The notes: generated by a model not told the origin, from the letters alone. A DNA stretch of 64,000 bases from Gemmobacter sp. (GCA_044238935.1 JBIICI010000001.1:68441-132440), one strand, 5' to 3'. Counted from the first letter of the stretch, positions 5,015 to 56,536 are shown. Numbers and translations: made by a program.

Positions 5015-8002
5015 TTATCCGCCATCACCCTCTTGTTTTGGAGGCTGTGCTGCTTTTTTAGCATTTATTTGGCCTAAAGACGTGGTTGTCTCCCCCCCAG
5101 CTCTATAGACACTTTGCAGACTATTCCCCAGCGTATTCCCAATCATGCTGCCCCCTAATGTTGCATATCCAATCATATTTTGCGCAGGGTCTTCTGCACC
5201 GGCACCAAATGTTTGCACGGAATTCCCCATCCAACGCAAAATATTATTCGGGATCATATCAATCATTTTAAACGATGCCATCGCCATCATGTAAGAGATC
5301 AGGGCAAATAAGATAAGATAAAAGAAATTATCAATGCCGTTGCCTAAATTTGCAAGACTTGCCTCCAGATCAGCCGTATTTTTGATATTTGCAACATTTG
5401 AGATTGTTTGGGCAGCCCCCGTTGCGGCATTGCTAACGCCACCACTATCTTGTGCGCCGAAAATACCGCCCGTTACGGAATCCCAGATTAAATTTAGAAT
5501 ATCCATTTGTGCGGCAAAAATTGTAATGCCTGCGATTAAACCAAAAATCGTTAAAATCGGGCGTAAGAATATTTCAAAGATTAAGAAATATCCCCCCATC
5601 GCGGCACTTCCCGGTAAGCCATCCCCGTCAATACGAATATGTGCCAATGCCCATAAGGGGACACCCACCATGGCCTCAAACAATCCCTTGACCCATCGTG
5701 CCGCCGCAAAAAAGAAATAAAGGAAGGGTAAAAACGGCACAATATACGCCAATGTAAACCCTGCCCCCAATCCCATCCCTGCGATCGTGACTAAGATACC
5801 AGCAACGGTTATGCCTGCACCCCCAAAGGCCATAATCTGACCCTGACCACTTAAATTACCCAAACCAGAAACCCCTGCAAGGACAAAAGAACCAAATACA
5901 TCAACAATCGTACTTTCAATCAAAGCCTGACCAATCGCGGTAAGACGGGCAATCGGATGCTTGTCTTGGTTTTTACGAATATCCAACATTCCATTCACAC
6001 CAAATAACCGTGCAACAAAATCCTTGATTGAATTCCCCGTTTCTTCTTGTTTCCCCTGCGTCAACCATGATTGATAGACTTCGTTCAGCATTTTTGCCAC
6101 CTGAAGCTCATGATTTTGCACTTTACTGGGCTCATTTTTAAAGTTTGTGGGGGTAAATTGTTCCGCCGCAGATCCTGCGGCATCATGATTTGCCCGTTCC
6201 TCCGCAATTTTTTTCATGATCAAAGGATAAGCATCAGGCTGTGGTAAATTATAGGCCGCCTTGATAAACGTACCGTTTAATTCAGATATTTTATTATACC
6301 ATGTTGCCGCCCCTGCCCAACCATTAATCTGAACATCAGGTAAATCATTAATCAGATTGGCTTTCATGGCCTGTTTAAATAATCCGGGGAAAGGACCATA
6401 AGACATTGATTGTTTTTCTGGCGTCTTATAAATAGGTTTATTTTCAGCATCATAATGATCAAAATTTTGTAATTCATACTGACATTGAACAGATTGTGGC
6501 ACACCTTGTAAATAATCTTGGTATAAATTTACAAAACATTCCCTTGCCGCATTATGATATTGCAGGGGGAATCCTTTGTTTTTATCAAAATCCGCTAAGG
6601 GATAATATCGATTGACCACGTTCATCGCATTAAAATGCGTAAACGGATCTGTCCACATGGAAATAATCATATTATAATAGCCGTTCAAAATGACTTTTGC
6701 GCCTTTATGCTTATTAAAATCCAGCGTGTTCATTTTTAAACTCAGCTCGCCACACTCTGGCACAATTTTCCCCATATATTTGCTGTTGGGATCAAGATGC
6801 CCAAAAACAATGTGGATATTATTTTTCTGCCCTGTAAAGGCTAATAATTCCTCAAAATCCTTAAACGTAGAAATTGATGCAGCACTGGCTTTGCCTGATT
6901 GCGGATCATATTGCGGATCGGTCAGTAATAAATAATCTTGCGCGCCCAAAGATTGCGTATTTTGCGTGGGGCGCACGGCATAGGCCTTGATTTGTTTTTT
7001 ATCGCCATAAATACGCTCTTGCGCGACTTTACAAGTATGTGCAATTTGCGTGAAGGCAACAAAACTCTTTACCCGTGGCGCATCAGGTTCTGTAATCATT
7101 TTTGATGGCTCAACTAAGAATTTGTTTGAACCATATAATGGGTCTTTGATATTGGCGTTGTATAAGGTATTGGTAAAGGTAATCCAGCCATTTGTTGCAA
7201 AACTAGATCCCAATTTAGCGGCATAAAGGGTAATATATTGCCCCGAATTCATACCATAGGCAACAGGGATCAATAATCCAATCCCAAAGACAATCCGAAT
7301 GGGTGCCCATACCGTGTTAAAACGCTTTCCAAATGGTGTGCCTGTTTGTGCCGTTTCAACAACAACAACGACCATATAATATAAGAAAATAATGGCGGCA
7401 ACAATCAGTAACCCCTTGGAATAAAAATGGAAAATACTATGCAGCGCCGTATGATACGCCGATGGAAAAGCACCATCGCCCAGCGCCCCCACACGTCCTC
7501 CATCACCACGCGGCAAACAGGCAATATTTTGTTCAACACATGAACCAAATAAATGCGGCAATCCAAAAACCCGATCCAACATAATAAAGGCAATATCCTG
7601 TGTGGGGGCTTTGGTTTTAAAAAACTGGAAAATCGATGGGTCAACAACCCCCGTTGTCGATGCCGCCATGGCCGCCCCAGAAATAAGGGAAGACAGCAAA
7701 ACCAAGAACTGACCCGCCAGCATGACAATACCAAATAAAATTGTATAAAAGACAATAATTTGATCAATATGCTGACGATCATGTTTCAAATTGCGCCATG
7801 CTTGGCTGACAACATGATGCACCGAATATTGCGCAAAATTTTCCTGTAATAAATACGGATGCCCCTCAGGCAATAAACGGATCATGCGAAAAACCAACGC
7901 CATAAAAAAAGCGATATACGCAAACCCAGACGCCGTTAAATCTCTGACCCGTGGTAAGATCTGAGGAAGAAGAACGAATTTTAAAATTTGTTTCTTTTGC
8001 AT
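5015..8002 (-). CDS. Large polytopic membrane protein, DotA/TraY-like (paralogue B, 995 aa)
   Basis: TM clusters at both ends flank a ~400-aa soluble centre. Motifs: ETAQTGTPFGKRFNTVWAPIRIVFGIGLLIPVAYGMNSGQYITLYAAKLGSSFATNGW, IVFGHLDP, FEAMVGVPLWALAHIRIDGDGLPG, FKMIDMIPNNILRWMG. Alignable along its whole length with the upstream 1061-aa gene. The family call rests on my recollection of DotA/TraY architecture and motifs. Confidence 0.6.
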   Translation of the reverse strand: MQKKQILKFVLLPQILPRVRDLTASGFAYIAFFMALVFRMIRLLPEGHPYLLQENFAQYSVHHVVSQAWRNLKHDRQHIDQIIVFYTILFGIVMLAGQFLVLLSSLISGAAMAASTTGVVDPSIFQFFKTKAPTQDIAFIMLDRVFGLPHLFGSCVEQNIACLPRGDGGRVGALGDGAFPSAYHTALHSIFHFYSKGLLIVAAIIFLYYMVVVVVETAQTGTPFGKRFNTVWAPIRIVFGIGLLIPVAYGMNSGQYITLYAAKLGSSFATNGWITFTNTLYNANIKDPLYGSNKFLVEPSKMITEPDAPRVKSFVAFTQIAHTCKVAQERIYGDKKQIKAYAVRPTQNTQSLGAQDYLLLTDPQYDPQSGKASAASISTFKDFEELLAFTGQKNNIHIVFGHLDPNSKYMGKIVPECGELSLKMNTLDFNKHKGAKVILNGYYNMIISMWTDPFTHFNAMNVVNRYYPLADFDKNKGFPLQYHNAARECFVNLYQDYLQGVPQSVQCQYELQNFDHYDAENKPIYKTPEKQSMSYGPFPGLFKQAMKANLINDLPDVQINGWAGAATWYNKISELNGTFIKAAYNLPQPDAYPLIMKKIAEERANHDAAGSAAEQFTPTNFKNEPSKVQNHELQVAKMLNEVYQSWLTQGKQEETGNSIKDFVARLFGVNGMLDIRKNQDKHPIARLTAIGQALIESTIVDVFGSFVLAGVSGLGNLSGQGQIMAFGGAGITVAGILVTIAGMGLGAGFTLAYIVPFLPFLYFFFAAARWVKGLFEAMVGVPLWALAHIRIDGDGLPGSAAMGGYFLIFEIFLRPILTIFGLIAGITIFAAQMDILNLIWDSVTGGIFGAQDSGGVSNAATGAAQTISNVANIKNTADLEASLANLGNGIDNFFYLILFALISYMMAMASFKMIDMIPNNILRWMGNSVQTFGAGAEDPAQNMIGYATLGGSMIGNTLGNSLQSVYRAGGETTTSLGQINAKKAAQPPKQEGDGG

Positions 8003-8019
8003 CTTTTATCTCATCTAAC

Positions 8020-11000
8020 TTAAGGTGTTTCGTCTTTTGGTGGCGCTTTTTTTATAGATCCACTGCTAATAGGGCTACCACCATTATTAGGCGGAGGGTC
8101 ACCCCCTGTTTCTTCTGGTGAGCCACTAGTAGGAGATGGCTTCTTAGCAGGTGGTGTGGACGCAGATGGTTGAGGATTTGATTGTTGAGGCTGAGGCTGG
8201 TTACCACCTTGATTTCCGCCGCCTTGTCCACCACCACCAGAACCAGCTTGGTTACCGTCGCCCCCTTGTTGTTGGTCACCCTGTTTTTTATCCTTTGGTG
8301 ATGTTAGTGAAGGAGGTTCAGGGGGCGCAGTTAATCTTCCAAGCAATGTTCCCACTGCTCCGCCTGAGTCGTGGACGATCTCAGATAATTCAGTCATATG
8401 CGTTCCAACCCCCCCTGCGATATAGGTGGTGCTGATATTCATCGGGTCTTCGATCTGATTTAGATCATTAAAGGTTTCCACACCAGCCCCCATCCAACGC
8501 ATAATATTTTGAGGGATCATATCAATTAATTTAAAGCTGCTATTGCCCAACATATACATTAAAACCGCATACATACAGGTAATCGCAAATTCATCAAATT
8601 TCCCACGCGCTGAATAGGCTGTGTTTTGCAGCTGATTGACAAATTTACCCGTATCAAAATCCTTGCCTTTGTTTAGGGCTGTTGCAATATCCCCAACCGC
8701 ACTTGCGCTTGCCTGCGCACCCCCTGAATTGTTGGATGCATTCAACATTTCATTGGCGATAATCGGGAATAAATCATGCATAATCCGTGCGGAGGCAGAA
8801 AAAATGCTCAAGGATGCAATCAAGCCAAACACAATGAGAATCGGCCGCAAGAAAACTTCAAAAATTAAATAATAGCCCATAATCCCCGAACTTCCGGGAA
8901 GGCCGCCACTATCGTTCGATTCTAATTTCAAATGCGCCAATGCCCATAGGGGCACACCGACCATGGCCTCAAAAATCCCCTTGACCCATCCCCCAACAGC
9001 AAAGAAAAAGAAAACAAACGGCATGAAGGGAATAACATATCCCAAAATAACGCCTGCGGTTAGACCCATCAAAGCAAAAACGGAAACCGCCCCTCCCAAC
9101 GCGCCTAATATAGGCATAGCGGAGGCCAGAAGAGGTTGCGAAGCGCCCCATTGAGAGAAAAAAGCAGACCCACCTTGAGCAAAGACAGAAATACCCAGAT
9201 TACGCACAGATGTTTCAACCATACTACGTCCTGCGGCGCTAAGATGTGATAAAGGATGCACATCATCCATATCAATCAAATCCATCAATCCTGATGTTCC
9301 CATCATCATATTTAAAACGGCTAAAAGCGTGTTTGATTCACGATTTTTCTCTCGATCAGATTGCATAGATTGAATCAATTGCGTCCATTCATCGGCAGCC
9401 GATTGCAAAACTTTTTTAATTTCATGATCAAATTGAAAATCATCGCCTTGATTATGCCCTGCCTCATCATTTTTTTGTGACGTGGTGCTGTTGGCCTGTG
9501 TGTTATTTTTACGCACAAAAACATCCGGTTTCCGGCTTACGGTGGGGGCATTATAAACAGCCCCAATCAACGCCCCATTATATTCAGAAACCGTATTATA
9601 CCAAATGCCTGCACCACCCCAACCATATTTTTGCAATGAACCTTGGGGGTATTGCGCGCCATACGCCCCATTTTTTTTCCAGCTATCCAATAATGATTTT
9701 TCTGCGACCTTTAGCTGATCAATGATGGTTAATTCCATATCAGAAATCAAAGATGTCGAAATATTTGGTGATGATGGATTATTATTCTTCCTGTTATAAG
9801 GCAAGAGTTTTTCATTCAGATATTCTGCGTATTGAAGTAATTTTGGATTATTATACCATAGATTCACAATCATTTGGAAATAGGCCGTTTCAATGACTTC
9901 TACGGCTTCTAATCGAAATTTTGATCGACGATGAATCACTAGCTCCCCACAATGTGGGTAAATGCCGGCTCTTGCATTTGAATATCGTACGGGGTCTAAA
10001 TGCCCAAAAACAATTCTAACATTTTCGCTCCCGACATTCAGGGCAAGGGCTTTTTTCCAAAAATCCCCTCCTGCCCCTGCAGGGATTTCTAAGAAATTAA
10101 CTTTATCATTGGATTTTTGGCCTCCTCCATTGATCCAATGATTTTGCCGCAGCACATAAGGCTTGATCTGACGGCCTTTGACATTGCCTGTGAATTCCTC
10201 ACTATAGGCACGCTGATGCGCAATTTGGCATGTTTTTGCAACCGCCATAAATTGTCCCAACGACGCCAAAGGTGGAATCGATTTAATTGGGGCAACAATT
10301 TTTAAGCCTTGATTTTTATTATTCCCTGCCTGTGCCGCTGTGCTTTCCGCACCGGGTAATAAATGATTATGCGCCCCGAAATAATACCAACCATTCGTGG
10401 CAAAACCTGATCCCCATTTTGCCGCATATAAAACGATAAATTGCGCGGAATTTAAACCATAAGCAACGGGCACCAATAAACCAATGGCAACAACCAATCG
10501 AATAGGCGCCCAAGTTCCTGAAAAACGCTGACCAAAGGGTGTACCTGATTGAGCCGTTTCTGCGATTACCACAACAATGTAATACAAAAAGATCATCACC
10601 GCGACAGCCAAAAGCGCATATGAATAAAAGCCCAGCAATTTCTGTAAACCCTGCTGAAATGGCGGAATTTTTGAGACTGAGGCAGGCGCATCCAAAGAGC
10701 CAAAGATACCGGGAATACCAAAAACACGATCCAACATCCGCAAGGCGATGTCTTCTTTTGGGTATTGTGTATGAAACATACTGGTCAATCCAGCATTCCC
10801 TGTGCCGGTAAGCCCTGCCGCATGTGCGGTTTCAAAAACCCATCCCATCAGAATCAACGCGATTTGACCAAAAATCAAGGCAAAGGCCAAAACAATGACA
10901 CCGAACATTAAAATTTGATCAATATGATGCCGATCCCATTTTAAATTTTTCCATGATTGGGCAATCACATGGCGAATGCCAAATTGCCCTATTGAATCAG

Positions 11001-11205
11001 CACGGCCATATATATGATTGCGCGGTAATAAGCCCACACTGATCAGCAACCACGCCATTAAATAGGCAAGCTGTGAAAAACCAACACCAAACAGATTATG
11101 CAATCTTGGCAATAGCGCAGGCAACAAAATATACCGCGCAACATCACCGCCTTTAATCTTAAAGGGTATAGAAGAAATAGTGTGCTTCCCTGCTTTTATG
11201 GTCAT
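8020..11205 (-). CDS. Large polytopic membrane protein, DotA/TraY-like (paralogue A, 1061 aa) with a G/Q/N/P-rich C-terminal tail
   Basis: Same architecture and motifs as paralogue B (ETAQSGTPFGQRFSGTWAPIRLVVAIGLLVPVAYGLNSAQFIVLYAAKWGSGFATNGW; IVFGHLDP; FEAMVGVPLWALAHLKLES; FKLIDMIPQNIMRWMG). It carries an extra ~110-aa low-complexity tail (..GDQQQGGDGNQAGSGGGGQGGGNQGGNQPQPQQSNPQP..). Confidence 0.6.
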   Translation of the reverse strand: MTIKAGKHTISSIPFKIKGGDVARYILLPALLPRLHNLFGVGFSQLAYLMAWLLISVGLLPRNHIYGRADSIGQFGIRHVIAQSWKNLKWDRHHIDQILMFGVIVLAFALIFGQIALILMGWVFETAHAAGLTGTGNAGLTSMFHTQYPKEDIALRMLDRVFGIPGIFGSLDAPASVSKIPPFQQGLQKLLGFYSYALLAVAVMIFLYYIVVVIAETAQSGTPFGQRFSGTWAPIRLVVAIGLLVPVAYGLNSAQFIVLYAAKWGSGFATNGWYYFGAHNHLLPGAESTAAQAGNNKNQGLKIVAPIKSIPPLASLGQFMAVAKTCQIAHQRAYSEEFTGNVKGRQIKPYVLRQNHWINGGGQKSNDKVNFLEIPAGAGGDFWKKALALNVGSENVRIVFGHLDPVRYSNARAGIYPHCGELVIHRRSKFRLEAVEVIETAYFQMIVNLWYNNPKLLQYAEYLNEKLLPYNRKNNNPSSPNISTSLISDMELTIIDQLKVAEKSLLDSWKKNGAYGAQYPQGSLQKYGWGGAGIWYNTVSEYNGALIGAVYNAPTVSRKPDVFVRKNNTQANSTTSQKNDEAGHNQGDDFQFDHEIKKVLQSAADEWTQLIQSMQSDREKNRESNTLLAVLNMMMGTSGLMDLIDMDDVHPLSHLSAAGRSMVETSVRNLGISVFAQGGSAFFSQWGASQPLLASAMPILGALGGAVSVFALMGLTAGVILGYVIPFMPFVFFFFAVGGWVKGIFEAMVGVPLWALAHLKLESNDSGGLPGSSGIMGYYLIFEVFLRPILIVFGLIASLSIFSASARIMHDLFPIIANEMLNASNNSGGAQASASAVGDIATALNKGKDFDTGKFVNQLQNTAYSARGKFDEFAITCMYAVLMYMLGNSSFKLIDMIPQNIMRWMGAGVETFNDLNQIEDPMNISTTYIAGGVGTHMTELSEIVHDSGGAVGTLLGRLTAPPEPPSLTSPKDKKQGDQQQGGDGNQAGSGGGGQGGGNQGGNQPQPQQSNPQPSASTPPAKKPSPTSGSPEETGGDPPPNNGGSPISSGSIKKAPPKDETP

Positions 11206-11292
11206 AGCTCCCCTAATATTATTTCTATAAAAATAGAAGTAATTTTATCTATTGTCCCCATAATACCACACTCCATCTATCAAACGCCATTT

Positions 11293-12873
11293 TTATTTCA
11301 CAGCAGGATTTAATAGATCCGTAGGCAGGCTTTCAATCTCATCCTCTGGCTTTGCTAAAAGGGGCTGTTCGATTTTCTCTCTCCGCCCCCCTTGTTTAGA
11401 GGCAGGATTTGTCAAGGCAGGATCTAAGCGATGCGCTTTGTTTCGGGCGGCTGTTTCATCAGCCGTGCTAAAAACCACAACACGGGGGCGCAACAAAAAC
11501 ACAAGCTCTAAGTTTCGTGTTGTACTGGTGCGGCTATTCGGTAAAAATGGGCGCATAAAACCTAATCCCGTACTATCAAACGCATCACTTTCACGAACAA
11601 GCCCTGCAATCAACGCGGAATCCCCTGGGCGAACACGAATTTGCGTTTGTACCTCACGTTCGGTTGTTTTGGGTAACTGAACGCGGTTTGCACCACCGCC
11701 AACTGTTGAAAAATCAAAATCTTCGATACTGGATACATCCGTCAATAAAATGTCTAAATCTGCATAAATTGTTGAATTATCCCATGCACTGCCAATCGAA
11801 ATTGTAAATCCCGTATCCACCGTATCTGTTGTAACGGCTGTGGTGGATTGACCATTATCAATCGTTTCAGCCAATTCAGAAACATAATTTTCAGTATCGG
11901 CAACGCGCAATCTGGCTTTTGATCCTGATAAGACTGAAACTTGCGGCTGTGAAATCGTTTTAACAGCGCCGTAACGGGATAAGAATTCCACAACTTCCGT
12001 GGGGGTCAACGCCCCCGTGCTGCTAATAATATTTTTGGTTGTTGGCAATCCGATACTGACCGGATTTGTGAAATCAGAATTGACACCGCCTTTAAAGTTC
12101 AAGCCTGTTTGAAATTTCCCAAATTTTCCAAACTGATCCCACTTCACCCCTGAGGAATTGCCGCTATTTAAGCCGACCTCCCAGATATAGGTTTCAAAAA
12201 CAATAAGCGCTGTACTGGTTCGCATGCGTTGGAAATAATTTTCTGCCAATTCTGCGGTTCGGTTTGTGGCTTGGTAAATTAATGTTCGTGTGGATTGATC
12301 AATCACGGGCGCCGTACCAGTAACGGCCTGCAGACCTGTGGCAATATTTGTGATATAATTCGTATCAGAGCTAATGGGTGGGATCTTGACTGTAAATGTT
12401 TGCGTATCACGAACAACAATCGTCCCATCTTCGTTAGAACAATATAAATTCGCTAAACCACAAACGCGGCTCACGACTTTATTGATTGATCCCTTCAGAT
12501 TGCTCACGGTAATCGTCCGTGTAAGGGCTGCGTTTGTTTCAAACGCTAATGAAATATCATAATCCGCCAAGATTAATTGTAATGCCCCCGCAACGGTTTC
12601 ATTGCGTAATTCAAATGGCCCCACTGTTTCAGAGGGCAAGGGATCATTATTCGCCTGTAACGGAATTAAAACATCATCCCCTAAGGGCAAATACATAACA
12701 CTGTCAGGACGCTCATTAATAGCTTCCTTGCGCTCTTGCGCTTGGGCAGGGGTTGGAATATCGGCGTTACGCGCACCGGGTACATCGGCCTGTACGCATC
12801 CATTCAAGCCTATTAAGGCCATGCAGACAAGCATTATAAAAGACGAAAAATTAAACTTCATTTTCTTATCCAT
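11293..12873 (-). CDS. Outer-membrane lipoprotein secretin, type IVb pilus (PilN/TcpC/BfpB-like) class
   Basis: Signal peptide with lipobox (..MALIGLNG-C). C-terminal secretin domain: ..VQTQIRVRPGDSALIAGLVRESDAFDSTGLGFMRPFLPNSRTSTTRNLELVFLLRPRVV. An alternative ATG at 12861 is possible. Confidence 0.75.
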   Translation of the reverse strand: MDKKMKFNFSSFIMLVCMALIGLNGCVQADVPGARNADIPTPAQAQERKEAINERPDSVMYLPLGDDVLIPLQANNDPLPSETVGPFELRNETVAGALQLILADYDISLAFETNAALTRTITVSNLKGSINKVVSRVCGLANLYCSNEDGTIVVRDTQTFTVKIPPISSDTNYITNIATGLQAVTGTAPVIDQSTRTLIYQATNRTAELAENYFQRMRTSTALIVFETYIWEVGLNSGNSSGVKWDQFGKFGKFQTGLNFKGGVNSDFTNPVSIGLPTTKNIISSTGALTPTEVVEFLSRYGAVKTISQPQVSVLSGSKARLRVADTENYVSELAETIDNGQSTTAVTTDTVDTGFTISIGSAWDNSTIYADLDILLTDVSSIEDFDFSTVGGGANRVQLPKTTEREVQTQIRVRPGDSALIAGLVRESDAFDSTGLGFMRPFLPNSRTSTTRNLELVFLLRPRVVVFSTADETAARNKAHRLDPALTNPASKQGGRREKIEQPLLAKPEDEIESLPTDLLNPAVK

Positions 12874-13345
12874 CTTTCTTTGTTAACAAATTTTGGCGAC
12901 GCTGCCGCATCACCAGCAATCGTTCAACTGTTTGAATTAATCTATCTTTTTCAACAGGTTTCATTAAAATAGCGCTTGCCTTCAACTTACTCATGCGTTC
13001 CAATAAATCAGGATTTTGATCCCCTGTCATAAAAATAACATCACTATCGACCTTGCGCAAAATAATTTGTCGTACAAATTCAAAACCATCCATAGGTTCC
13101 ATGCGGACATCAACAATCATAATATCCACGGGAGGGACAGAATCACTATGATTCGCGTCTGAATATTGATTGATAAAATCCAGCGCGGCTTTTGCATTAT
13201 TTTGTTCGGTCACCAAAACATCCCCCCATTCGCCTTTCCATTGGGCTTTTTGAAGATAACGGCTGGTTTGCATACGGACAAAATCATTATCCTCAACAAT
13301 CATAATATGAATCGGTGTATTGACAGACGACATGATGGCGATCAT
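12866..13345 (-). CDS. Stand-alone response-regulator receiver (CheY-like, no output domain)
   Basis: 159 aa. Acidic pocket IMIVEDND, phospho-acceptor in DIMIVDVRMEPMDG, T in IFMTG, K in LMKP. The stop (12866-12868) overlaps or abuts the secretin start. Confidence 0.85.
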   Translation of the reverse strand: MIAIMSSVNTPIHIMIVEDNDFVRMQTSRYLQKAQWKGEWGDVLVTEQNNAKAALDFINQYSDANHSDSVPPVDIMIVDVRMEPMDGFEFVRQIILRKVDSDVIFMTGDQNPDLLERMSKLKASAILMKPVEKDRLIQTVERLLVMRQRRQNLLTKKDG

Positions 13346-13422
13346 AGAAAAAATATATTAACACTTTATTATGGCAGTGTTTGTAAAAGGAATAAAGGAC
13401 TATTTCAATATCAAAGGGTATC

Positions 13423-13926
13423 ATGGTTATTTTCAGTGTCTTATGCCTATCCATTGCATTAATATGTTTAATATATCTAACAATTATTGATTTACGGCAT
13501 TATTTGCTGCCGGATATTTACACGCTTCCCTTTGGGCTAAGCGGGTTTTTATTTCATGCGATCCATAATTTTCAATTTATCTCTTTTGAGAACCTCGCAA
13601 ATGGATTGTTATTAGGCATGGGGCTGCTGGGGATTATTCGATTTCTAGCGAATCTTGCCTATGGTCGTGATACTTTGGGATTAGGTGATGTCAAATTAAT
13701 GGCCATGGCAGGGTTATGGATTGGATATTACGCCATGCCTCTTGCGCTTATCATTGGCGCGATTGCCGCGATTATTCACGGTTTTGGAATGGCTCTATAC
13801 CAATATTCCCGTCAAAAATCTTGGCCACAGCTCAATCAACTCATGATCCCCGCAGGACCAGGATTAATTTTTGGTATTCTCACCGCTGGATTAGGGATTT
13901 ATTTTCAGATTCCTTTGTTCTTGTAA
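13423..13926 (+). CDS. Short A24-family prepilin peptidase (CpaA/TadV/PilU-like, no methyltransferase domain)
   Basis: 167 aa and polytopic. First catalytic Asp region is IIDLRHYLLPD; the second lies in the GxGD motif LGLGDVKLMAMAG. Confidence 0.8.
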   Translation: MVIFSVLCLSIALICLIYLTIIDLRHYLLPDIYTLPFGLSGFLFHAIHNFQFISFENLANGLLLGMGLLGIIRFLANLAYGRDTLGLGDVKLMAMAGLWIGYYAMPLALIIGAIAAIIHGFGMALYQYSRQKSWPQLNQLMIPAGPGLIFGILTAGLGIYFQIPLFL

Positions 13927-15038: not shown

Positions 15039-16682
15039 TTATATTTTATCTTTGATCACTAACAAAGCAGGTTTCGTTGCTTTTGGATCCATTTTATGGA
15101 ATTGATATTCAAAGCCCTGATGTTCGGGTCGTGATAAAATCGCCGTAATGGCATCTTTTAAGCTGCCATTATAGGCTTGGTTTGTATCAATCACGACTTG
15201 TTTTTTAGAATCCCAATAAAAAACCAGCCCTTCTTCTGCGCTCCATTGATTTAAGACTTCTTTTAAAAGCTCGCCATTCATGGCTTTCCATTTTCCTTGT
15301 GGCAAGGATTCTTTTTCAGAAGCAACAACAGGAATCTTGACGATTTCTTGTGATTGCACCTGAATATTAGACACATCCCGAACAGGGGCATTTAAGGTCA
15401 CAGAATCTGTATAAAGTCGGGTAATTTGCACCGTTTTACCCACAATATTGACCGATAAGTCCAAGGGTTCTAGCATTTGTTTTAACAAAGTTGGCCATGC
15501 CTGACCGCCCTTCCATGACACATTATGTTTTAGGTTAATCCCCTTTTCAAACGCCCATGGATAAGACGGCGGAATAATTTGTGACAACGCAATCACCAAG
15601 GGAATATCACTCCCAAAACCATTGACCGTTTCATAAACAATATCAGACACAGGCGCGATATTTGTGCCTTGCGCGGATATTGACGCCCCTGAATTCAGCG
15701 GTTCAATCTGTACGCCAATTGGTGCAACAGCAGGCATGGCATTAAGACCCGTCACATTAACCCCCTGTACGTCAGACGATTTCAATGGATACGGATTAAT
15801 ACGCCCCTTATATACTGGTTGTACGGGCGCGGGATTATTTTTAACAATCACGGGCGTATCGGTCGATACAAAAGGCGCGACCACAAAATTCTTTGTTTTA
15901 CCAAATCCTTTTTTAATCCCCCCGAAAAAACGCCCGAAAATCGATTCTTTATCCGCATTTGTATTCTGCGCATCAGATAAAGTGCGAGAGGTCACATCAA
16001 AATTTTCTTGTTTAATTGCGCTTGGTTGCGCCTGTCTTATAATAGGCTGAGGATTATTTTGGGCATTCAGCGTATTCATCCGCATAGAAGCAGGCGATTT
16101 CTGTGTTGATTGATTATACAGGCTGCTTTCATTTTGTAATGCCGCAACAGGATCTTTGACAATCGGAACTGGCATCGTTGAGGCTTTTAACGGTGTGGAT
16201 TCCTGTTGAATTTGATTTTGGGCATTTTGTAATTTTTGTTCAATGGACTGCAAGCTTTGATCGATAGGTGTTGGTGTTGGCGTTCCCGATGCTCTGGCTG
16301 CCGCAATAGGATTCGGAACAGCAGGGGCATCCCCTTTAAACTGCTCAATATCTTTATATAAGGGGGGCAAAGATTGCGTTGGCACAATATTTTTGACAGA
16401 TGGTGACGGCGCCGAAGATACAGATGTCTTCGCAACAGGCTCAAGCGGAATGGCAACCACGGGCGATGGATAAGGCGAGGCAGGCATGACAGGCGCAATA
16501 TTCTCAGATGATCTCTGTGACTGTCCTTGTGCCTGCATTTGTGATTGCGGTTGTTGTTGGTTTTGGGATTGCGCTGCTGGTTTTGACCATTCAAACCCAG
16601 CCTTTGCCGCGGAAAAAGGGAGAGCAAAACTGCATAAAAACACAGCAGCAGACATATAAAAATGAATTGTTTTTTGTGTCAT
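15039..16682 (-). CDS. Secreted Q/P-rich protein with two C-terminal TcpQ/PilL-like modules (possible secretin accessory protein)
   Basis: Start moved to the ATG at 16682, which gives a clean signal peptide (MTQKTIHFYMSAAVFLCSFALPFSAAKA). About 330 aa of Q/P/S/N low complexity follow. Then come ..IPLVIALSQIIPPSYPWAFEKGINLKHNVSWKGGQAWPTLLKQMLEPLDLSV.. and ..WKAMNGELLKEVLNQWSAEEGLVFYWDSKKQVVIDTNQAYNGSLKDAITAILS.. The domain call is from memory. Confidence 0.4.
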   Translation of the reverse strand: MTQKTIHFYMSAAVFLCSFALPFSAAKAGFEWSKPAAQSQNQQQPQSQMQAQGQSQRSSENIAPVMPASPYPSPVVAIPLEPVAKTSVSSAPSPSVKNIVPTQSLPPLYKDIEQFKGDAPAVPNPIAAARASGTPTPTPIDQSLQSIEQKLQNAQNQIQQESTPLKASTMPVPIVKDPVAALQNESSLYNQSTQKSPASMRMNTLNAQNNPQPIIRQAQPSAIKQENFDVTSRTLSDAQNTNADKESIFGRFFGGIKKGFGKTKNFVVAPFVSTDTPVIVKNNPAPVQPVYKGRINPYPLKSSDVQGVNVTGLNAMPAVAPIGVQIEPLNSGASISAQGTNIAPVSDIVYETVNGFGSDIPLVIALSQIIPPSYPWAFEKGINLKHNVSWKGGQAWPTLLKQMLEPLDLSVNIVGKTVQITRLYTDSVTLNAPVRDVSNIQVQSQEIVKIPVVASEKESLPQGKWKAMNGELLKEVLNQWSAEEGLVFYWDSKKQVVIDTNQAYNGSLKDAITAILSRPEHQGFEYQFHKMDPKATKPALLVIKDKI

Positions 16683-21908: not shown

Positions 21909-23195
21909 TCAAAAATTAATCTGCGTCCCTAATAACAAGGATGTGGCATCTTTTTTGCTTTGTGCCTGCATCGTATGCTCCGTATAATTCAAAGATCCGC
22001 GAAAGCTCATACCGGGACCATATGTATAGGTCAATCCCCCCGAATAACGATCTGTATCCAATTTCCCTGCATTTTTACCGTAATAGGCACTAATATCTTG
22101 GGCGTTTTTATAATAGGATGTGCCGACTTTCAAATATCCTGTTTTATAATCCGCACCGACAACGGTTGTTTTGCTTTTTGCGCCTTGATCAATGCCTAAA
22201 TTATCCTCCTGATAGCTTGTCCCAAAGCCAAAAGGGCCATATTCGCTATCAAACCCTAGATTCCATGCGGTGCGATCATCGCGCCGCGCCAAAATCTGCT
22301 CCCCTGCGCTTAATAGATTATCATTATTTGCATCAATAAAGCTGATATTTTGCTGTGCTTCTAAGGCGTTAAAGGCCAATCCAGCGCCCATTTGATAGGA
22401 TAATTTTTGCAATTCCCCCTCATATCGCAAGGCAACTTCGTAAGCGCTGCCAAAATCGCCTGATTCGTTATCAGCGCGCACGCCTTCTAAGTTCCGATTA
22501 TCATCATCATTTTCAGGGACATAAGATATGGCCGCCTGTGCCCCTGAAATTTTGGGGGTGATATAGGTTAATTTATTCGCCCATCCCGTGATGGCATGAT
22601 CATAATCATACCCTGCGGTGACCCCTGCATTATAGCTTGTTGCGCCTGTAAAGGCATTGGAAACCACAATATCATCACCGCCGCCATCGGCTGCGAAAAC
22701 ATTCAAATTTGTACCAGCTTGAATGGCACTTAAGGAATTCAGGGTCGAAACTCGTCCGCCGATCACGGCATAATTGACAGGGTTAATATATTGGCGCAAT
22801 CCATCAATATTATTATCCGACGATGGAGCGGCAACTTGCATCAAATACGCAGCGCCATCTTCTGCACCCGCATTCACGCGCCCCCAATCGCCTGAGAAAT
22901 AAGCATAAGATTCCTGAACATCAAAAGAATCATCGGCATCGGCCTCAACTTCGGCATGATACCCTACCGTAAGGCCATTATCTAAAGCCGATTCCCCATT
23001 AAAATGAATTTCTGTATTTTGTTGCCAATCAGTGCTTCGTGCCTTGGCATTCGGGGCGTGGTCTTGGTTTGTTTGGGTTAAATATCCATTGTAAAACCCA
23101 CCCAAAGACAGATCAACGCCTTTATCTTCCGCGTACGCAGACAATGACAAAAGCGTGAAAACCGTAAAAAATGATCCTAAAATAAAATAACGCAT
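21909..23195 (-). CDS. Outer-membrane porin (beta-barrel)
   Basis: Start moved to the ATG at 23195, giving signal peptide MRYFILGSFFTVFTLLSLSAYA. The sequence has an alternating amphipathic, G/Y/D/N-rich pattern and a terminal aromatic residue (..LLGTQINF). Confidence 0.65.
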   Translation of the reverse strand: MRYFILGSFFTVFTLLSLSAYAEDKGVDLSLGGFYNGYLTQTNQDHAPNAKARSTDWQQNTEIHFNGESALDNGLTVGYHAEVEADADDSFDVQESYAYFSGDWGRVNAGAEDGAAYLMQVAAPSSDNNIDGLRQYINPVNYAVIGGRVSTLNSLSAIQAGTNLNVFAADGGGDDIVVSNAFTGATSYNAGVTAGYDYDHAITGWANKLTYITPKISGAQAAISYVPENDDDNRNLEGVRADNESGDFGSAYEVALRYEGELQKLSYQMGAGLAFNALEAQQNISFIDANNDNLLSAGEQILARRDDRTAWNLGFDSEYGPFGFGTSYQEDNLGIDQGAKSKTTVVGADYKTGYLKVGTSYYKNAQDISAYYGKNAGKLDTDRYSGGLTYTYGPGMSFRGSLNYTEHTMQAQSKKDATSLLLGTQINF

Positions 23196-23486
23196 GCCCA
23201 CAGCATACACAAAGCCACACTGAAAAATCAAGTCCATGATTCAAGTGGGGCTTTGTTTTTGCGGTCGAGTTACAACATAAAACACCAATAACCTCCTATA
23301 TTTTTTCCAAAACAAACCAATAATTTCCAAATTCTGCCTTATTTATTTCACACGCATTATTTTTATTATCAAAAACTTGACACAACTTAAAACTACCAGA
23401 AAAGCAATCTAAAATATATTTGGGACAGCCCCCAAAATATTTATGATATCTTACTCAAGTCTTTAAGAAAAAATCCTATCTAAAGT

Positions 23487-23822
23487 TCACCAGACCCTCT
23501 TTTTAGGACTGATTGGAACAACAGAAATATTAATAATAACATCTCTATCATCCTCATCTGAAGCTCTATTTTTTTTTCGATGGCCACAATCAACGCATTC
23601 ATGCTCTATAATGTAACTATCTCGTTTTATCTCTACTCCTACCGGCTTCATTAGTCCTCCACAGTCAGCCGACCTATCCCCAGGATTGATATCGACATGC
23701 TTGCTGTACAAACATTTTGAACAATGGTTGGTATAGCCATTACCTATATTGTGATGCCCACAATTATTACAGATAAAGTCCTCGGTCTTTCTCAAAAATT
23801 TTTTACCCAATTTATTTTCCAT
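23487..23822 (-). CDS. RNHCP-domain zinc-ribbon protein
   Basis: 111 aa with CxxC pairs (CNNCGHH.., NHCSKCLYSKHVD, CVDCGH) matching the RNHCP-domain pattern. The gene sits in an AT-rich spacer. Confidence 0.6.
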   Translation of the reverse strand: MENKLGKKFLRKTEDFICNNCGHHNIGNGYTNHCSKCLYSKHVDINPGDRSADCGGLMKPVGVEIKRDSYIIEHECVDCGHRKKNRASDEDDRDVIINISVVPISPKKRVW

Positions 23823-23991
23823 ACATTAACCTAGAATGTATTTTTCAGATTAATATATCTGCCACAATAGAGACGCTGATGTCAAGCTAGACATCAGAAG
23901 CCCCCTAAATATAAAAAAGCACGCACGTTACAAAGTTTGCAAAACTTGATTCTGCGTGAATATTATTTTCATACATTACTAAATTGTACGC

Positions 23992-24312
23992 TTAAGCCGC
24001 GTCTGTAATCCAAGCCGCCAAGGCTGTTTTAGACAGAGCCCCCACTTTTGTATCCACCAATTTTCCGCCTTTGAACAACATCAAGGTTGGAATACCGCGC
24101 ACACCATATTGTGTGGGCGTACTAGGGTTTTCATCAATATTTATTTTTGCAATCGTGACTGATGATGCCATTTCATTGGCGACTTCATCCAAAATCGGTG
24201 ACAAGGCACGGCAAGGGCCACACCATTCTGCCCAGAAATCAACAATAACGGGCTTATCCGCATTTTCGATGGTGCTTTGAAAATCTTGATCAGTTAATTT
24301 TATCGTTGTCAT
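23992..24312 (-). CDS. trxA: Thioredoxin
   Basis: 106 aa with active site WAEWCGPCR. Confidence 0.95.
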   Translation of the reverse strand: MTTIKLTDQDFQSTIENADKPVIVDFWAEWCGPCRALSPILDEVANEMASSVTIAKINIDENPSTPTQYGVRGIPTLMLFKGGKLVDTKVGALSKTALAAWITDAA

Positions 24313-43504: not shown

Positions 43505-44707
43505 ATGAATATCCATGAATATCAGGCAAAAGAACTCTTGAAACACTATGGCGTTGCTGTTCCCGTTGGCTATCCTGCCCTAACGGTTGATGAGGCCGTG
43601 GCCGCTGCCCAAAAACTAACAACCCCTGTTTTTGTGGTGAAATCCCAAATTCATGCAGGCGGTCGTGGGGCAGGGCATTTTAAAAATAATCCCACAGGCA
43701 AAGGCGGTGTTCGCGTTGTTAAATCAGTTGATGAAGTCAAAGCTGCCGCCCAAGAGATGTTAAACCAAATCTTGGTGACCAAACAAACAGGGGCTGAGGG
43801 CAAAGAAGTTCAGCGTTTATATATCGAAGAAGGCTGTAACATTGCCCGTGAACTCTATTGCGGTATTTTACTGGATCGCGCCACATCGCGCGTGACCTTT
43901 ATGGTTTCCACCGAAGGCGGTATGGATATTGAAGAGGTCGCCCATCACCACCCTGAAAAAATTATCAAGGTTGCTATTGATCCTGCCACAGGGATGCAAG
44001 CCTTTCATGCGCGCAAATTAGGCTTTGCTTTGGGATTATCCGAACAAGCCATGAAAAAATCTGTCAAATTTATGTTGGCGATGTATAAAGCCTTTGTGGA
44101 TTTAGATGTGTCTATCTTGGAAGTCAACCCGTTGGTGATTACCGCAGATGAAGATGTCATTGCCCTTGATGCAAAGATGAATTTTGATGATAATGCTTTG
44201 TTCCGTCATCCCAATGTTTTGGCACTGCGTGATATTACAGAAGAAGATGAAAATGAGCGCGAGGCCACAGATAACGAATTATCCTATGTGCGTTTAGACG
44301 GCAATATTGGCTGTATGGTCAATGGCGCAGGCTTGGCGATGGCAACGATGGATATTATTAAACTCAGCGGCGGCGAGCCTGCAAACTTCTTGGATGTTGG
44401 CGGCGGCGCCACCAAAGAACGCGTGACAAAAGCCTTTAAAATTATTCTATCTGATCCCAACGTAAAGGGCATTTTGGTGAATATTTTCGGCGGCATTATG
44501 CGCTGTGATATTATTGCTGAGGGCGTCATTGCTGCTGCGAAAGAAGTGTCCTTAAACGTCCCCTTAGTCGTCAGATTGGAAGGCACAAATGTGGAATTGG
44601 GTAAAGAAATTTTAGCCAAATCAGGCCTACCGATTGTCTCTGCGGATAATTTGGCGGATGCAGCGGTTAAGGTTGTGGCAGCAACAAAACAGGCCATGGC
44701 GGCGTAA
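43505..44707 (+). CDS. sucC: Succinate--CoA ligase (ADP-forming) subunit beta
   Basis: 400 aa with N-terminus [12 protein letters not shown] and ..[18 protein letters not shown].. Confidence 0.97.
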
Positions 44708-44721
44708 AATAGGATTATGAA

Positions 44722-46416
44722 GTGGATCAATCTGCATTAAAAAATCTCCTTCATCAACTTATCGCAAAAGGCGAAAATGAAACGGTTGATTTTAAGAGAA
44801 CAGCCGATACAGATAAGATTGGTCGTTATTTTTCGGCACTTTCTAATGAAGCTAATCTTCAAAATCTTGATACAGCTTGGTTAATTTTGGGGGTTGATGA
44901 TAAAAGTCGTGATCTAATCGGATGTTCGGCTTATCTTGATAATGAGAGTCGTACAGAGCTTAAGAAAAAAATTGCACAAAACTTATCACCACCTTCTATG
45001 AATTTCAGGAATATCCACATTCTTGAAATAGATCAAAAAAAGATCATTTTGCTCTTTGAGATTCCACCTGCTCCTCTTGGCATCCCTGTATTTTGGAAAA
45101 AAGTTGCATATGCGCGTAGTGGCGATAGTATTGATAATCTTTCAATAGGCAAGCAGGATCAAATTCGAAACCAAGAACCAATAGATTGGTCATCTGAAAT
45201 TGTACCTGAGGCAACATTAGAAGATTTAGATGAAGAAGCCGTACAAAAAGCACGACACATTTTCGCTCAGAAAAACCCTAATTTTAATGATAATGATGTA
45301 AAAGATTGGGCAACTCAGATTTTCTTGGATCGTGCCCATCTTACGCGTCAAGGAAAAATCACAAAATCAACTTTACTATTATTGGGAAAAGCAGAATCAT
45401 CATCTTTGCTTTCTCCGCATCCTGCACGAATAACATGGAAATTGGAAGATCACATTCCAGATTATGCACATTTTGATCCTCCGTTTCTTTTATCTGTTGC
45501 TAAACTCTATCAAAAGATCCGTAATCGCCAAATCAGTCTTTTACCAAGAAACCAGCTTTTATCCGTTCAGATACAGCAATATGACCAAAAAGTTATATTA
45601 GAAGCTCTTAATAATTGTATCGCGCATCAGGATTACAGAAAAAATGCTCGTATTATCGTTCATGAAAAACCAGATAAACTGATTTTTATAAATTCTGGAT
45701 CGTTTTTTGATCGACACCCTAATGATTACATAGAGGGAGATTCAATTCCCCTGAAATACCGTAATTCTTTTCTAACAAAATCAATGAGTGTATTAGGGAT
45801 GATTGATACAGTCGGATACGGTATTTATCAAATCCATAAAATACAACGACAACGGCATTTACCGATGCCAGATTATGATTTATCCGAGGCTGACAAGGTT
45901 TCTTTAACAATTTATGGCAATGTAATTGATAGCGCATATAGCCAGCTTTTGATGGAAAATACAGATCTTTCACTCTTGGAAATTATCTCTCTTGATCGGC
46001 TACAGAAAAAAAGACCTATTTCTGCTGAAATGACTGCTCAACTCAAACGTAAAGGGCTTATAGAAGGAAGAAAGCCAAATTTTTATATTGCCCCTTCTAT
46101 TGCTAAAACCAAAGAAGATCGTACGCGATATATGATGGAGCGTTCGATTGATGATAATCACTATAAAAAACTTATTTTAGATTATCTAAAAAAATTCAAG
46201 GCGGCCTCAAAAAATGATTTAGACGACTTTTTAAAGCTAAAAATCAGCGATCGCTTAAATGATGCACAAAAAATAAAGAAAATCGCTAACTTATTAACTA
46301 GCCTAAGGCGTGAGGGCGTAATTTATAATAATGGCAGTAAAAAATACCCATCTTGGAAAATATCAAAAAATGATAAATTGCAGAATAAAAGAGGCGAATT
46401 GCAGAATAAAAAATGA
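44722..46416 (+). CDS. AlbA_2 (Schlafen-type) + HATPase_c_4-like putative DNA-binding regulator ('RecG-like' in many annotations)
   Basis: 564 aa with a GTG start 14 nt after the sucC stop. N-terminal pattern: ..ENETVDFKR..IGRYFSALSNEANL..AWLILGVDD..; central pattern: ..EALNNCIAHQDYRKNARIIVHEKPDKLIFINSGSF.. The C-terminus is basic, possibly a wHTH-like region. Confidence 0.62.
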   Translation: MDQSALKNLLHQLIAKGENETVDFKRTADTDKIGRYFSALSNEANLQNLDTAWLILGVDDKSRDLIGCSAYLDNESRTELKKKIAQNLSPPSMNFRNIHILEIDQKKIILLFEIPPAPLGIPVFWKKVAYARSGDSIDNLSIGKQDQIRNQEPIDWSSEIVPEATLEDLDEEAVQKARHIFAQKNPNFNDNDVKDWATQIFLDRAHLTRQGKITKSTLLLLGKAESSSLLSPHPARITWKLEDHIPDYAHFDPPFLLSVAKLYQKIRNRQISLLPRNQLLSVQIQQYDQKVILEALNNCIAHQDYRKNARIIVHEKPDKLIFINSGSFFDRHPNDYIEGDSIPLKYRNSFLTKSMSVLGMIDTVGYGIYQIHKIQRQRHLPMPDYDLSEADKVSLTIYGNVIDSAYSQLLMENTDLSLLEIISLDRLQKKRPISAEMTAQLKRKGLIEGRKPNFYIAPSIAKTKEDRTRYMMERSIDDNHYKKLILDYLKKFKAASKNDLDDFLKLKISDRLNDAQKIKKIANLLTSLRREGVIYNNGSKKYPSWKISKNDKLQNKRGELQNKK

Positions 46417-46576: not shown

Positions 46577-47458
46577 ATGGCCGTTTTAGTTGGAAAAAAC
46601 ACAAAATTAATTTGCCAAGGTTTTACAGGCGCACAGGGCACGTTCCATTCTGAACAAGCCATTGCCTATGGCACGAATATGGTGGGGGGTGTAACCCCCA
46701 ATAAAGGCGGGACAAAGCATTTGAATTTGCCTGTATTCAATACAGTGCATGAGGCTGTGCATGTCACAGGCGCAAATGCAACGGTCATTTATGTACCGCC
46801 AGCCTTTGCAGCGGATGCAATTTTGGAAGCCATTGATGCCGAAATTGAACTGGCAGTTTGTATCACCGAAGGAATCCCTGCCCTTGATATGGTGCGTGTT
46901 AAACGTGCTTTGCAAGGCTCAAAAACGCGCCTTGTTGGCCCAAACTGCCCCGGTGTGATTACCCCCGGTGAATGTAAAATCGGCATTATGCCCGGTCACA
47001 TCCATAAACGCGGCAGCGTGGGCATTGTTTCCCGTTCAGGCACATTGACGTATGAGGCCGTGGCACAAACAGGCGCGGTCGGCTTGGGGCAATCCACCTG
47101 TATTGGGATTGGTGGCGATCCAGTGAACGGCACGAACTTTATTGATTGTTTGGAATTATTCCTCAATGACCCTGAAACTGAATCCATCTTAATGATCGGT
47201 GAAATCGGCGGTACTGCGGAGGAAGAAGCGGCAGAATTCTACAAAGCATCCAAGATCAAAAAACCCATCGCGGGCTTTATCGCAGGGGCAACGGCGCCTG
47301 AAGGCAAGCGTATGGGACATGCTGGTGCGATCATTTCAGGTGGACAAGGCACAGCAGAATCAAAATTTGAGGCCATGCGCCGCGCGGGATTCGTTGTTTC
47401 CAACAGCCCCGCAGGATTGGGAACAGCGGTGCTGGAAGCCATTAAAAAGGCAGCCTAG
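46577..47458 (+). CDS. sucD: Succinate--CoA ligase subunit alpha
   Basis: 293 aa with ..[35 protein letters not shown].. and the catalytic-His region ..MGHAGAII.. Confidence 0.97.
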
Positions 47459-50129: not shown

Positions 50130-51041
50130 TTAAAAAAGTTGTAAAATCATACAACGTGCGGAACCGCCGCCATGTTTTTCGATTGTATCTAAAGGTGCAG
50201 AAACAATATTATCAATATATAATTTCAGCGTGTCTTTTTGAGGCAATGTTAGGGATTGTTCAGCCTGTTGGGACATTACCAATAATCGTGCACCCTGTGC
50301 ATTTTCAATTTCTAATGCATTCCCACAAAAAGATAGAATTTGATCCATGCTCAGGTCAATAATGATATGGGTTTGCGATAGGCGACCAATAACGCGCTCA
50401 CGATCATCGGGGGCAATTGATTCCGTACATAGCCCCGCATATCCTGTGCCAATATACATGATAACATTCGTATGATAAACCTGCCCACCTGTGTGATCAT
50501 AGGCAGAAAAAGCAATGGTTTCATATCCATAGACTTCCCCCCATTGCGCAAATAAACGCGCATCCAGTCGGGGGGATATACAGCCATAGGCAACACGGTG
50601 AATATGATCAATAATAATCGTGCCCGTGCTTTCTAGGATCTGTCCCTGTTGTTCATAGGTCGATAGATCACCAATGATTTGGTAACGACGATTTAACCAG
50701 TCAATAATAGCAGGACGACGTTCCAAACGACGATTTTCTGCCATCATGGGATATAAAATATACCCGTGATTTATGGGATCATCATGGGTCGATACCCAAT
50801 TATTGGGGAATAAATCATCAGGGCTGTCGGCTTGACCTAAAAAAGTTGTCACATTCGCGCCTGCATTGACCAATGCATCACGGAAATTCCGGAATTCTTG
50901 TCTAGCTTGCTGCTGAATCTTGATAATATCGGCATCATGAACATGATGTTGATAATGATTGCTGGCGGCTGTTTGGGGATTGCAGCCAAAGGCAACGGGT
51001 TCGATCATCAGCAAATCACTGGTGGACTGACGAACGCGCAT
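50130..51041 (-). CDS. Amidinotransferase/arginine-deiminase-superfamily protein (CtlX-like)
   Basis: 303 aa. The C-terminal catalytic-Cys motif ..HGGGSARCMILQLF is typical of the guanidino-group-modifying enzyme fold. Confidence 0.5.
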   Translation of the reverse strand: MRVRQSTSDLLMIEPVAFGCNPQTAASNHYQHHVHDADIIKIQQQARQEFRNFRDALVNAGANVTTFLGQADSPDDLFPNNWVSTHDDPINHGYILYPMMAENRRLERRPAIIDWLNRRYQIIGDLSTYEQQGQILESTGTIIIDHIHRVAYGCISPRLDARLFAQWGEVYGYETIAFSAYDHTGGQVYHTNVIMYIGTGYAGLCTESIAPDDRERVIGRLSQTHIIIDLSMDQILSFCGNALEIENAQGARLLVMSQQAEQSLTLPQKDTLKLYIDNIVSAPLDTIEKHGGGSARCMILQLF

Positions 51042-56462: not shown

Positions 56463-56536
56463 GCGGGTGTAGCTTAGTGGTAAAGCTCCAGCCTTCCAAG
56501 CTGGCCATGAGGGTTCGATTCCCTTCACCCGCTCCA
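56463..56536 (+). tRNA. tRNA-Gly (anticodon UCC), CCA encoded
   Basis: Folded by hand. Acceptor GCGGGTG/CACCCGC, D arm GCTT..AAGC, anticodon stem CCAGC/GCTGG with loop CTTCCAA, T arm GAGGG-TTCGATT-CCCTT, discriminator T plus CCA. Length 74 nt. Confidence 0.93.

Follow-up and report, generated by a model that had tools for sequence, protein, structure and literature searches.

Introduction

The closest described relatives of the two largest proteins considered here are DotA, from the Dot/Icm type IVB secretion system of Legionella, and TraY, from the plasmid R64. DotA has 1048 amino acids (aa) and assembles as a pentamer into a chamber anchored in the inner membrane; with IcmX, it makes up a closed protochannel that is opened by host contact (Yue et al. 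2025). In the nomenclature review of 2025, DotA is the equivalent of VirB6. We describe here a locus at positions 5015-13926 of a 64,000-nucleotide stretch of DNA (the window) from an assembly labeled Gemmobacter sp. (GCA_044238935.1, JBIICI010000001.1:68441-132440), in which two DotA/TraY-like genes follow the genes for a response-regulator receiver and a secretin, with a gene for a prepilin peptidase diverging from them. A first-pass annotation, made from the sequence of the window alone, had proposed that these genes encode a self-contained, stripped-down apparatus made of a secretin and DotA-type proteins. In this report, we present evidence that the secretin-DotA set is probably not a new minimal machine. 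The locus is instead likely to consist of two independently conserved envelope-machine modules of Micavibrio-type predators, which have become adjacent in this lineage alone by rearrangement.

Micavibrio is an obligate bacterial predator. In the TXSScan survey, the M. aeruginosavorus strains ARL-13 and EPB were each found to have three type I secretion systems, no type II secretion system, no type IV pilus, one Tad pilus, and one flagellum, together with one pT4SSi, one type Va, and one type Vb secretion system (Abby et al. 2016, Table S3). The term pT4SSi denotes a relaxase-less MPF-I, i.e., Dot/Icm-type, secretion system (Abby et al. 2016). This call exists solely as a row in a supplementary table, and the DotA-like proteins have been named automatically in NCBI/JGI records. 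A search of the literature on Micavibrio with DotA or Icm turned up no report of DotA-like genes in this organism, and no type IV secretion system is listed for Micavibrio in a review of contact-dependent predation published in 2025.

Organization of the Locus

The features of the locus, and one further gene close to it, are as follows.

5015-8002, minus strand: DotA/TraY-family paralogue B, 995 aa, a predicted polytopic inner-membrane protein with a large periplasmic domain (TIGR04346)
8020-11205, minus strand: DotA/TraY-family paralogue A, 1061 aa, with a low-complexity C-terminal tail (TIGR04346)
11206-11292, minus strand: spacer of 87 nt between the secretin gene and gene A, without a terminator-like hairpin; probable rearrangement junction
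11293-12873, minus strand: secretin, probably a lipoprotein, with its start at 12873 or 12861 (PF00263)
12866-13345, minus strand: stand-alone CheY-like receiver (PF00072), the stop of which overlaps the secretin start (translational coupling)
13346-13422: divergent intergenic region of 77 bp between the receiver and peptidase genes, with presumed promoters
13423-13926, plus strand: short A24 prepilin peptidase, 167 aa, without a methyltransferase domain (PF01478)
15039-16682, minus strand: secreted TcpQ-domain protein, 547 aa (PF10671), a possible type IVB secretion or pilus accessory

The list of open reading frames (ORFs) places the five genes of the locus exactly where the first-pass annotation had put them, with the same 17-nt gap between B and A, 87-nt gap between A and the secretin gene, 77-bp spacer between the receiver and peptidase genes, and overlap of receiver and secretin. 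A scan for terminators returned no terminator-like hairpin between the secretin gene and A or between A and B.

It had also been stated that no other parts of a type IV secretion system or type IV pilus are present. We likewise found no pilus or type IV secretion ATPase, platform, or pilin gene anywhere in the 64-kb window, and the TcpQ-domain gene (PF10671) had been missed. The 64-kb window contains no histidine kinase gene and no homologue of DotB, DotC, DotD, or IcmT. Unlike Legionella DotA and R64 TraY, the window pair is located outside a dot/icm or tra cluster.

Identity of the DotA-Like Proteins

The assignment of A and B to the DotA/TraY family was confirmed with the model TIGR04346 (DotA_TraY), for which the scores were determined to be 233.4 and 228.8 bits, respectively, above the cutoff of 100. 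With the Legionella-type equivalog model NF033886 (T4SS_DotA), A and B scored 146.8 and 171.9 bits and did not reach the cutoff of 500. No match to Pfam was found for either protein. Judged by sequence, A and B are members of the family and not orthologues of Legionella DotA.

The two proteins had been described as paralogous along their whole length, and they are 33% identical from end to end (E 2e-162). The predicted hydrophobic helices cluster at both ends of each protein, as had been noted, around a soluble center of ~450 aa (~400 aa in the earlier estimate). The central domain of the DotA-like proteins contains an invariant pair of cysteines. The nearest database homologue of A is 37% identical, and several of the database matches of A are named DotA/TraY family protein and come from uncultured Alphaproteobacteria. 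Plasmid TraY/DotA proteins are 21-25% identical to B.

A profile built from 15 family members matched Legionella DotA (PDB 9ngy/9nh0) with an E value of 1.6e-30, and the match takes in the conserved pair of N-terminal membrane helices as well as the hydrophobic bundle at the C-terminus. The AlphaFold model of A, calculated from 15 sequences, is weak (pLDDT 56.5); the model of B, calculated from 120 sequences, has a pLDDT of 78.9 and a pTM of 0.78. When both models were compared with the PDB using Foldseek, DotA (9ngy) was the sole match with E <= 0.001 in either case. The E values were 1.3e-10 for the weak model of A and 3.3e-11 for the model of B, with a probability of 1.00 and ~1000 aligned columns. 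The TM-scores to DotA are modest, 0.33-0.42 over both models; for the model of B they are 0.37/0.42 over 1013 aligned columns. Since the TIGR04346 scores and the fold match are accompanied by an identity of only 21-25% to plasmid TraY/DotA, A and B are true but very divergent members of the DotA/TraY family.

The plan shared with Legionella DotA and R64 TraY begins with two conserved N-terminal membrane helices, continues with a large extended periplasmic domain in which cysteines are conserved, and ends in a bundle of long hydrophobic helices. In the structural alignment the identity to Legionella DotA is ~14%, and the window proteins possess an additional N-terminal region of ~150 aa with two more predicted helices that Legionella DotA does not have. 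Legionella encodes a single DotA, whereas 2-4 tandem paralogues are found in the window and its relatives.

DotA Arrays in the Relatives of the Window Organism

One genome per GTDB species was scanned, which gave 246 relatives, and 76 loci were kept. These loci come from Micavibrio aeruginosavorus, Micavibrio sp., Micavibrio-type metagenome-assembled genomes (MAGs) labeled Pseudobdellovibrionaceae or Bdellovibrionales, and MAGs named at the level of class, order, or phylum only. Because the loci are from Micavibrio and Micavibrio-type genomes, and because two gene pairs of the window, rpe-heparinase II/III and hemE-hemH, recur in the gene list of M. aeruginosavorus ARL-13, the window organism is a deep-branching relative of Micavibrio. 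In a broader profile search of 1.84 billion representative proteins, 1462 clusters were recovered at E < 1e-30.

The six-frame ORFs of all loci were searched with the window proteins. Every one of the 76 loci contains a tandem array of DotA-like genes, and a homologue of the secretin, the A24 peptidase, or the TcpQ protein was found within 10 kb of the array in 0/76. Copies were counted in the 58 arrays that are complete within their locus. Three full copies are present in 48 of these and four in eight, and the other two have fragmented copies; no array (0/58) has exactly two intact copies. The best matches across genomes pair position 1 with position 1 and position 2 with position 2, and the duplication is therefore old and its order has been kept. 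In a rough neighbor-joining tree, A of the window is near the position-1 clade and B groups loosely with the clade of positions 2, 3, and 4. Neither A nor B is more than 35-39% identical to any of the Micavibrio array copies.

The site of the arrays is also conserved. Within 10 kb of the array, mlaC and mlaA were found in 58/77 loci, lptF in 55/77, and an ABC-F gene in 57/77; none of these genes was found in the window. In ARL-13 the array corresponds to GMV_196-198, which are annotated as "putative membrane protein" and adjoin vacJ and ttg2. All three are expressed in M. aeruginosavorus; their indices in attack/attachment are 11.9/3.9, 4.8/1.7, and 3.6/2.8 (Wang 2011, RNA-seq table), the attack-phase value being the higher one for each gene. 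The window pair has in common with GMV_196-198 and the Micavibrio pT4SSi the protein family, the order-level clade, and a chromosomal, relaxase-less, core-genome context. The three copies in Micavibrio are beside mlaC/mlaA and ~750 kb from the secretin operon, whereas the two copies in the window are fused behind the secretin gene. In strain HCB189 the secretin operon is at 1.51-1.53 Mb and the DotA array at 2.27-2.30 Mb.

The Secretin and the Filament Operon of Relatives

The assignments of secretin, receiver, and peptidase in the first-pass annotation were all upheld, with scores of 54.8 bits for the secretin (PF00263, gathering threshold 27.5), 61.9 bits for the receiver (PF00072, cutoff 30.2), and 65.2 bits for the peptidase (PF01478, cutoff 26.5). 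The secretin had been called a lipoprotein secretin of the type IVb-pilus kind. Its N-terminus, MKFNFSSFIMLVCMALIGLNGC, contains a lipobox-like motif (LNGC), in agreement with the lipoprotein call. The score with the PilN model (TIGR02520) is only 60.8 bits (cutoff 287.65), and that with the best NCBIfam model, MshL (TIGR02519), is 108.6 bits (cutoff 250.2); both are thus below cutoff.

The secretin is 58-69% identical to Micavibrio-type secretins, including that of M. aeruginosavorus, and is far better conserved than the DotA-like genes. The receiver is 41-48% identical to the receivers encoded upstream of the Micavibrio secretins. Its phospho-acceptor pocket (E18/D19, D79, T107, and K129) is invariant with the Micavibrio orthologues of 123-131 aa, from which it differs by lineage-specific insertions of 7 and 8 residues and a longer basic C-terminus. 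The peptidase retains both catalytic aspartate contexts (D23, and GLGD at 86-89) and is orthologous to the peptidase of the Micavibrio operon (phmmer 3.2e-36).

The context of the secretin gene was determined in six relatives (M. aeruginosavorus HCB189, three MAGs, and two short contigs). The order was found to be the same in 6/6, with the A24 peptidase gene diverging from the genes for a receiver (~125 aa) and the secretin, which continue into the following genes.

Gene 1 after the secretin: protein of ~530 aa with ASH/Ig-like domains
Gene 2: GspE/PilB-type ATPase of ~610 aa (PF00437, 269.9 bits)
Gene 3: GspF-like platform protein of 406 aa
Last four genes: small proteins of ~330, 177, 245, and 243 aa, of which the final two are pilin-like at the N-terminus
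Far end, other strand: hybrid histidine kinase, in 4/6; the other two contigs stop before this point

No homologues of these downstream proteins were found in the window, which retains only the peptidase and the secretin of the type IV filament set. In ARL-13 the operon is GMV_1939-1933. The window shares with it the orthologous A24 peptidase, receiver, and secretin, the divergent layout, and the translational coupling, and lacks every gene downstream of the secretin as well as the flanking hybrid histidine kinase. Because the orthologous trio continues into an ATPase/platform/pilin operon in all six relatives, the window secretin, as judged from its orthologues, is probably part of a type IV filament system that is divergent but otherwise ordinary. 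TXSScan classes the Micavibrio secretin operon as neither a type II secretion system nor a type IV pilus (both 0).

In M. aeruginosavorus (L082, 18405-20023, plus strand) the two proteins of ~245 aa at the end of the operon were observed to have N-termini of the form ...ERGN/SxLxxILIAxAL... in which the usual Glu5 is missing.

On either side of the peptidase/receiver/secretin trio, the gene order has been rearranged in comparison with Micavibrio. The first-pass annotation had described the arrangement as chromosomally fixed, and the five genes were found together again solely in a near-identical assembly, GCA_041443025.1. Scans of metagenome contigs with window A or the secretin as the single query gave no confirmed relatives.

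The R64 proteins PilL/PilN/PilU and the Vibrio cholerae proteins TcpC/TcpQ provide a further comparison, since these systems also have a lipoprotein secretin, a short A24 peptidase, and a TcpQ-domain protein. The window secretin differs from those of the type IVb pili of R64 and V. cholerae in that it scores below cutoff with the PilN model and higher with MshL. The TcpQ gene of the window is outside the secretin operon, and its homologues accompany dotDCB-icmT and not pilus genes. A specific origin from an R64-type thin pilus was considered and dropped as unsupported, the PilN score being below that of MshL.

The TcpQ-Domain Gene and a dotD-dotC-dotB-icmT Cluster

The TcpQ gene is between parB and pheS, and pheS alone separates it from the peptidase gene. 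The encoded protein has a signal peptide, a low-complexity linker rich in Q, P, and S, and two TcpQ-like domains; the C-terminal domain scored 39.5 bits with PF10671 (gathering threshold 27). The search for homologues was hampered by the low-complexity linker and returned two clusters. The sole homologue family found (loci L089 and L090) is encoded directly after dotD-dotC-dotB-icmT. L090, which has no housekeeping genes in common with the other loci, comes from a circular contig of 2.43 Mb in which the order is DsbG-like protein, 394-aa protein, TrbN-like protein, DotD, DotC, DotB, IcmT, and TcpQ. The following genes of this cluster were assigned.

TrbN-like transglycosylase, upstream of dotD
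DotD (PF16816; NF033882 98 bits, below the cutoff of 140)
DotC/TraI (PF16932, 268.8 bits)
DotB (TIGR02524 382 bits, below the cutoff of 463)
IcmT/TraK (NF038220 72 bits, above the cutoff of 40)

No homologues of the TrbN-like protein, DotD, DotC, DotB, or IcmT were found in the window or in the array or secretin loci.

Opposite the dotDCB-icmT-TcpQ cluster, and adjoining flgK/flgL, five tandem paralogues of 441-592 aa share the motif ARAHKDYHPS (L090, 15392-21515, minus strand; L089, 7859-12251, minus strand). These paralogues were tried as IcmX-like partners and gave no sequence match in Pfam, NCBIfam, or the PDB.

Proposed Origin and Function of the Locus

The reading that we favor, as the probable one, is that the locus combines two modules with separate histories. 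Module 1, the peptidase, receiver, and lipoprotein secretin, would be the head of the conserved divergent type IV filament operon, with the secretin acting as the outer-membrane pore of the filament system and the receiver as its phosphorelay input. Module 2 would comprise the two DotA/TraY paralogues, which are of the VirB6 class. By homology to Legionella DotA, we infer that the paralogues form an oligomeric chamber, anchored in the inner membrane, by which a type IVB secretion channel is gated. The oligomer would probably be a mixture of A and B, because at least two ancient paralogue types have been kept.

The filament operon would have been cut after the secretin by a rearrangement, and a two-copy DotA array would have been relocated from its usual mla/lpt site to a position behind the secretin gene. 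The relocated array is probably under the control of the receiver-secretin promoter and would be co-transcribed with the receiver and secretin genes.

The DotA arrays themselves are most likely part of a chromosomal, relaxase-less Dot/Icm-type system, the remaining genes of which would be at other loci. A Dot/Icm-like system with its genes spread over several chromosomal loci is the picture that fits best with the pT4SSi call, the L090 cluster, and the lack of such genes in the array and secretin loci. That the DotA-like genes might be dispersed members of a fuller Dot/Icm system had been raised in the first-pass annotation as a finding that would speak against its own proposal. In this clade it is probably so, given the pT4SSi call and the TcpQ homologues next to dotD-dotC-dotB-icmT.

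Several observations weigh against the reading that we favor. No other type IVB secretion gene was found within 10 kb of any of the 76 arrays, and L090 is linked to the window by TcpQ-protein homology alone (~31-34% identity over about a third of the protein). The genome paper of 2011 for ARL-13 states that there is no evidence for a type III or type IV system. The missing ATPase, platform, and pilin genes, together with those for DotB, DotC, DotO, and DotL, would have to be elsewhere in the genome of the window organism. Tight spacing, the lack of a terminator, and a nearby TcpQ gene are also what would be expected of a true functional fusion.

Alternative Explanations

An unlikely alternative is that the DotA-like arrays are orphan channels without type IV secretion machinery, which would serve either an envelope function linked to mla and lpt or a stand-alone conduit between predator and prey. 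Their fixed location beside mlaC, mlaA, and lptFG is consistent with this explanation, as are the complete absence of type IVB genes from the 10 kb around each array, the additional N-terminal region relative to DotA, and the equivalog scores of 172 and 147 bits, far under the cutoff of 500. The prediction by TXSScan of a Dot/Icm-type system in Micavibrio argues against it, and the synteny with mla/lpt may reflect mere neighborhood.

It is less probable still that the receiver, the secretin, and the two DotA paralogues constitute one minimal trans-envelope apparatus that operates without an ATPase under phosphorelay control. The four tightly spaced genes on one strand with no predicted terminator between them would suit such a machine, as would the absence of the remainder of the filament operon from the 64 kb. 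Although the borders of the trio have been rearranged, it has come to lie with the DotA pair and the TcpQ gene inside 12 kb. However, each module occurs in a larger or separate context in relatives, and the adjacency is confined to this organism and the near-identical assembly, with 0/76 array loci and 0/6 secretin loci elsewhere. A secretin that is so similar (58-69%) to those encoded in a full ATPase/platform/pilin operon is suggestive of the same job. In addition, the solved Dot/Icm machine has an outer-membrane core of the DotC/D/H type and not a secretin (Yue 2025), and no energy source for a minimal apparatus is encoded.

Slightly less probability again is given to the recruitment of the secretin as the outer-membrane exit of a two-paralogue DotA channel that is controlled by the receiver and acts at the contact between predator and prey. 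If true, this would be a hybrid conduit of a type IV pilus and a type IVB secretion system. A hybrid machine is disfavored because the juxtaposition is unique and the secretin is unchanged and highly conserved; a small probability is retained because the genes are tightly fused, the filament genes expected after the secretin have been lost from the locus, and a TcpQ gene is nearby. The secretin-DotA pairing is thus either a lineage-specific accident or, less likely, a co-option.

IncI1 plasmids encode TraY/DotA together with a lipoprotein secretin, a short A24 peptidase, and a protein with a TcpQ/PilL-like domain. The possibility that the locus is what remains of an integrated IncI/R64-like conjugative element (TraY, PilN, PilU, PilL-like), now in decay and without present function, is consistent with this joint occurrence of all four protein families and with the dotC-dotB-icmT order of L090, which is that of R64 traI-traJ-traK, but it is very improbable, given more than 200 full-length intact copies kept across the whole order with position-specific orthology, transcription of the array genes in M. 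aeruginosavorus, the lack of an integrase, relaxase, insertion sequence (IS) element, or compositional anomaly, an identity of only 21-25% to plasmid TraY, and a secretin that scores higher with MshL than with PilN.

Surroundings of the Locus

The core-genome setting described in the first-pass annotation, between gcrA and pheS, was found to be correct. The flanks are housekeeping and origin-proximal, with gcrA, pheS, parB, parA, rsmG, mnmG, and the genes for ATP synthase, flagellar proteins, hemE/hemH, and sucCD. No integrase or IS element turned up in the Pfam scans of the window, and its GC content shows no anomaly. The sole tRNA of the window is at 56463.

Four further features of the window were observed. 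The sucC and sucD genes are normally contiguous. In the window the pair (43505-44707 and 46577-47458) is split by a gene for a Schlafen/AlbA_2 protein with an HATPase_c_4 domain (564 aa, 44722-46416, plus strand). The gene for a KAP-family P-loop NTPase (754 aa, 59157-61421, plus strand), which starts within the stop of a class I aminoacyl-tRNA synthetase gene (56623-59160), may be a gene of the defense type among housekeeping genes. A stretch of ~1.07 kb at 23238-24305, upstream of a Porin_4 gene (21909-23237), is without genes; its GC content of 0.36 is the lowest in the first 24 kb, and it has a strong negative GC skew. A eukaryote-type dimethylarginine dimethylaminohydrolase is encoded at 50130-51041 on the minus strand (PF19420, 251.9 bits), adjoining genes for a GDP-mannose dehydratase and epimerase.

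Conclusions

The pairing of secretin and DotA-like genes that first drew attention to this locus appears to be an ordinary, lineage-specific juxtaposition. The novel element is the DotA array itself, which is conserved, comprises several paralogues, and belongs to the core genome of a predatory order; we found no paper that discusses such arrays. They would represent a variant of the Dot/Icm type of system, in predatory bacteria, that is chromosomal and dispersed and in which DotA is encoded by arrays of several paralogues. The fixed site of the arrays, their attack-phase expression, and the pT4SSi row point to a chromosomal Dot/Icm-like machine with an unusual DotA channel, probably of mixed subunits. 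Because the DotA-IcmX gate of Legionella opens on contact with the target cell, the DotA-like genes are candidates for a conduit between predator and prey, and they may be relevant to the question of how Micavibrio and other epibiotic predators breach prey cells and drain them.

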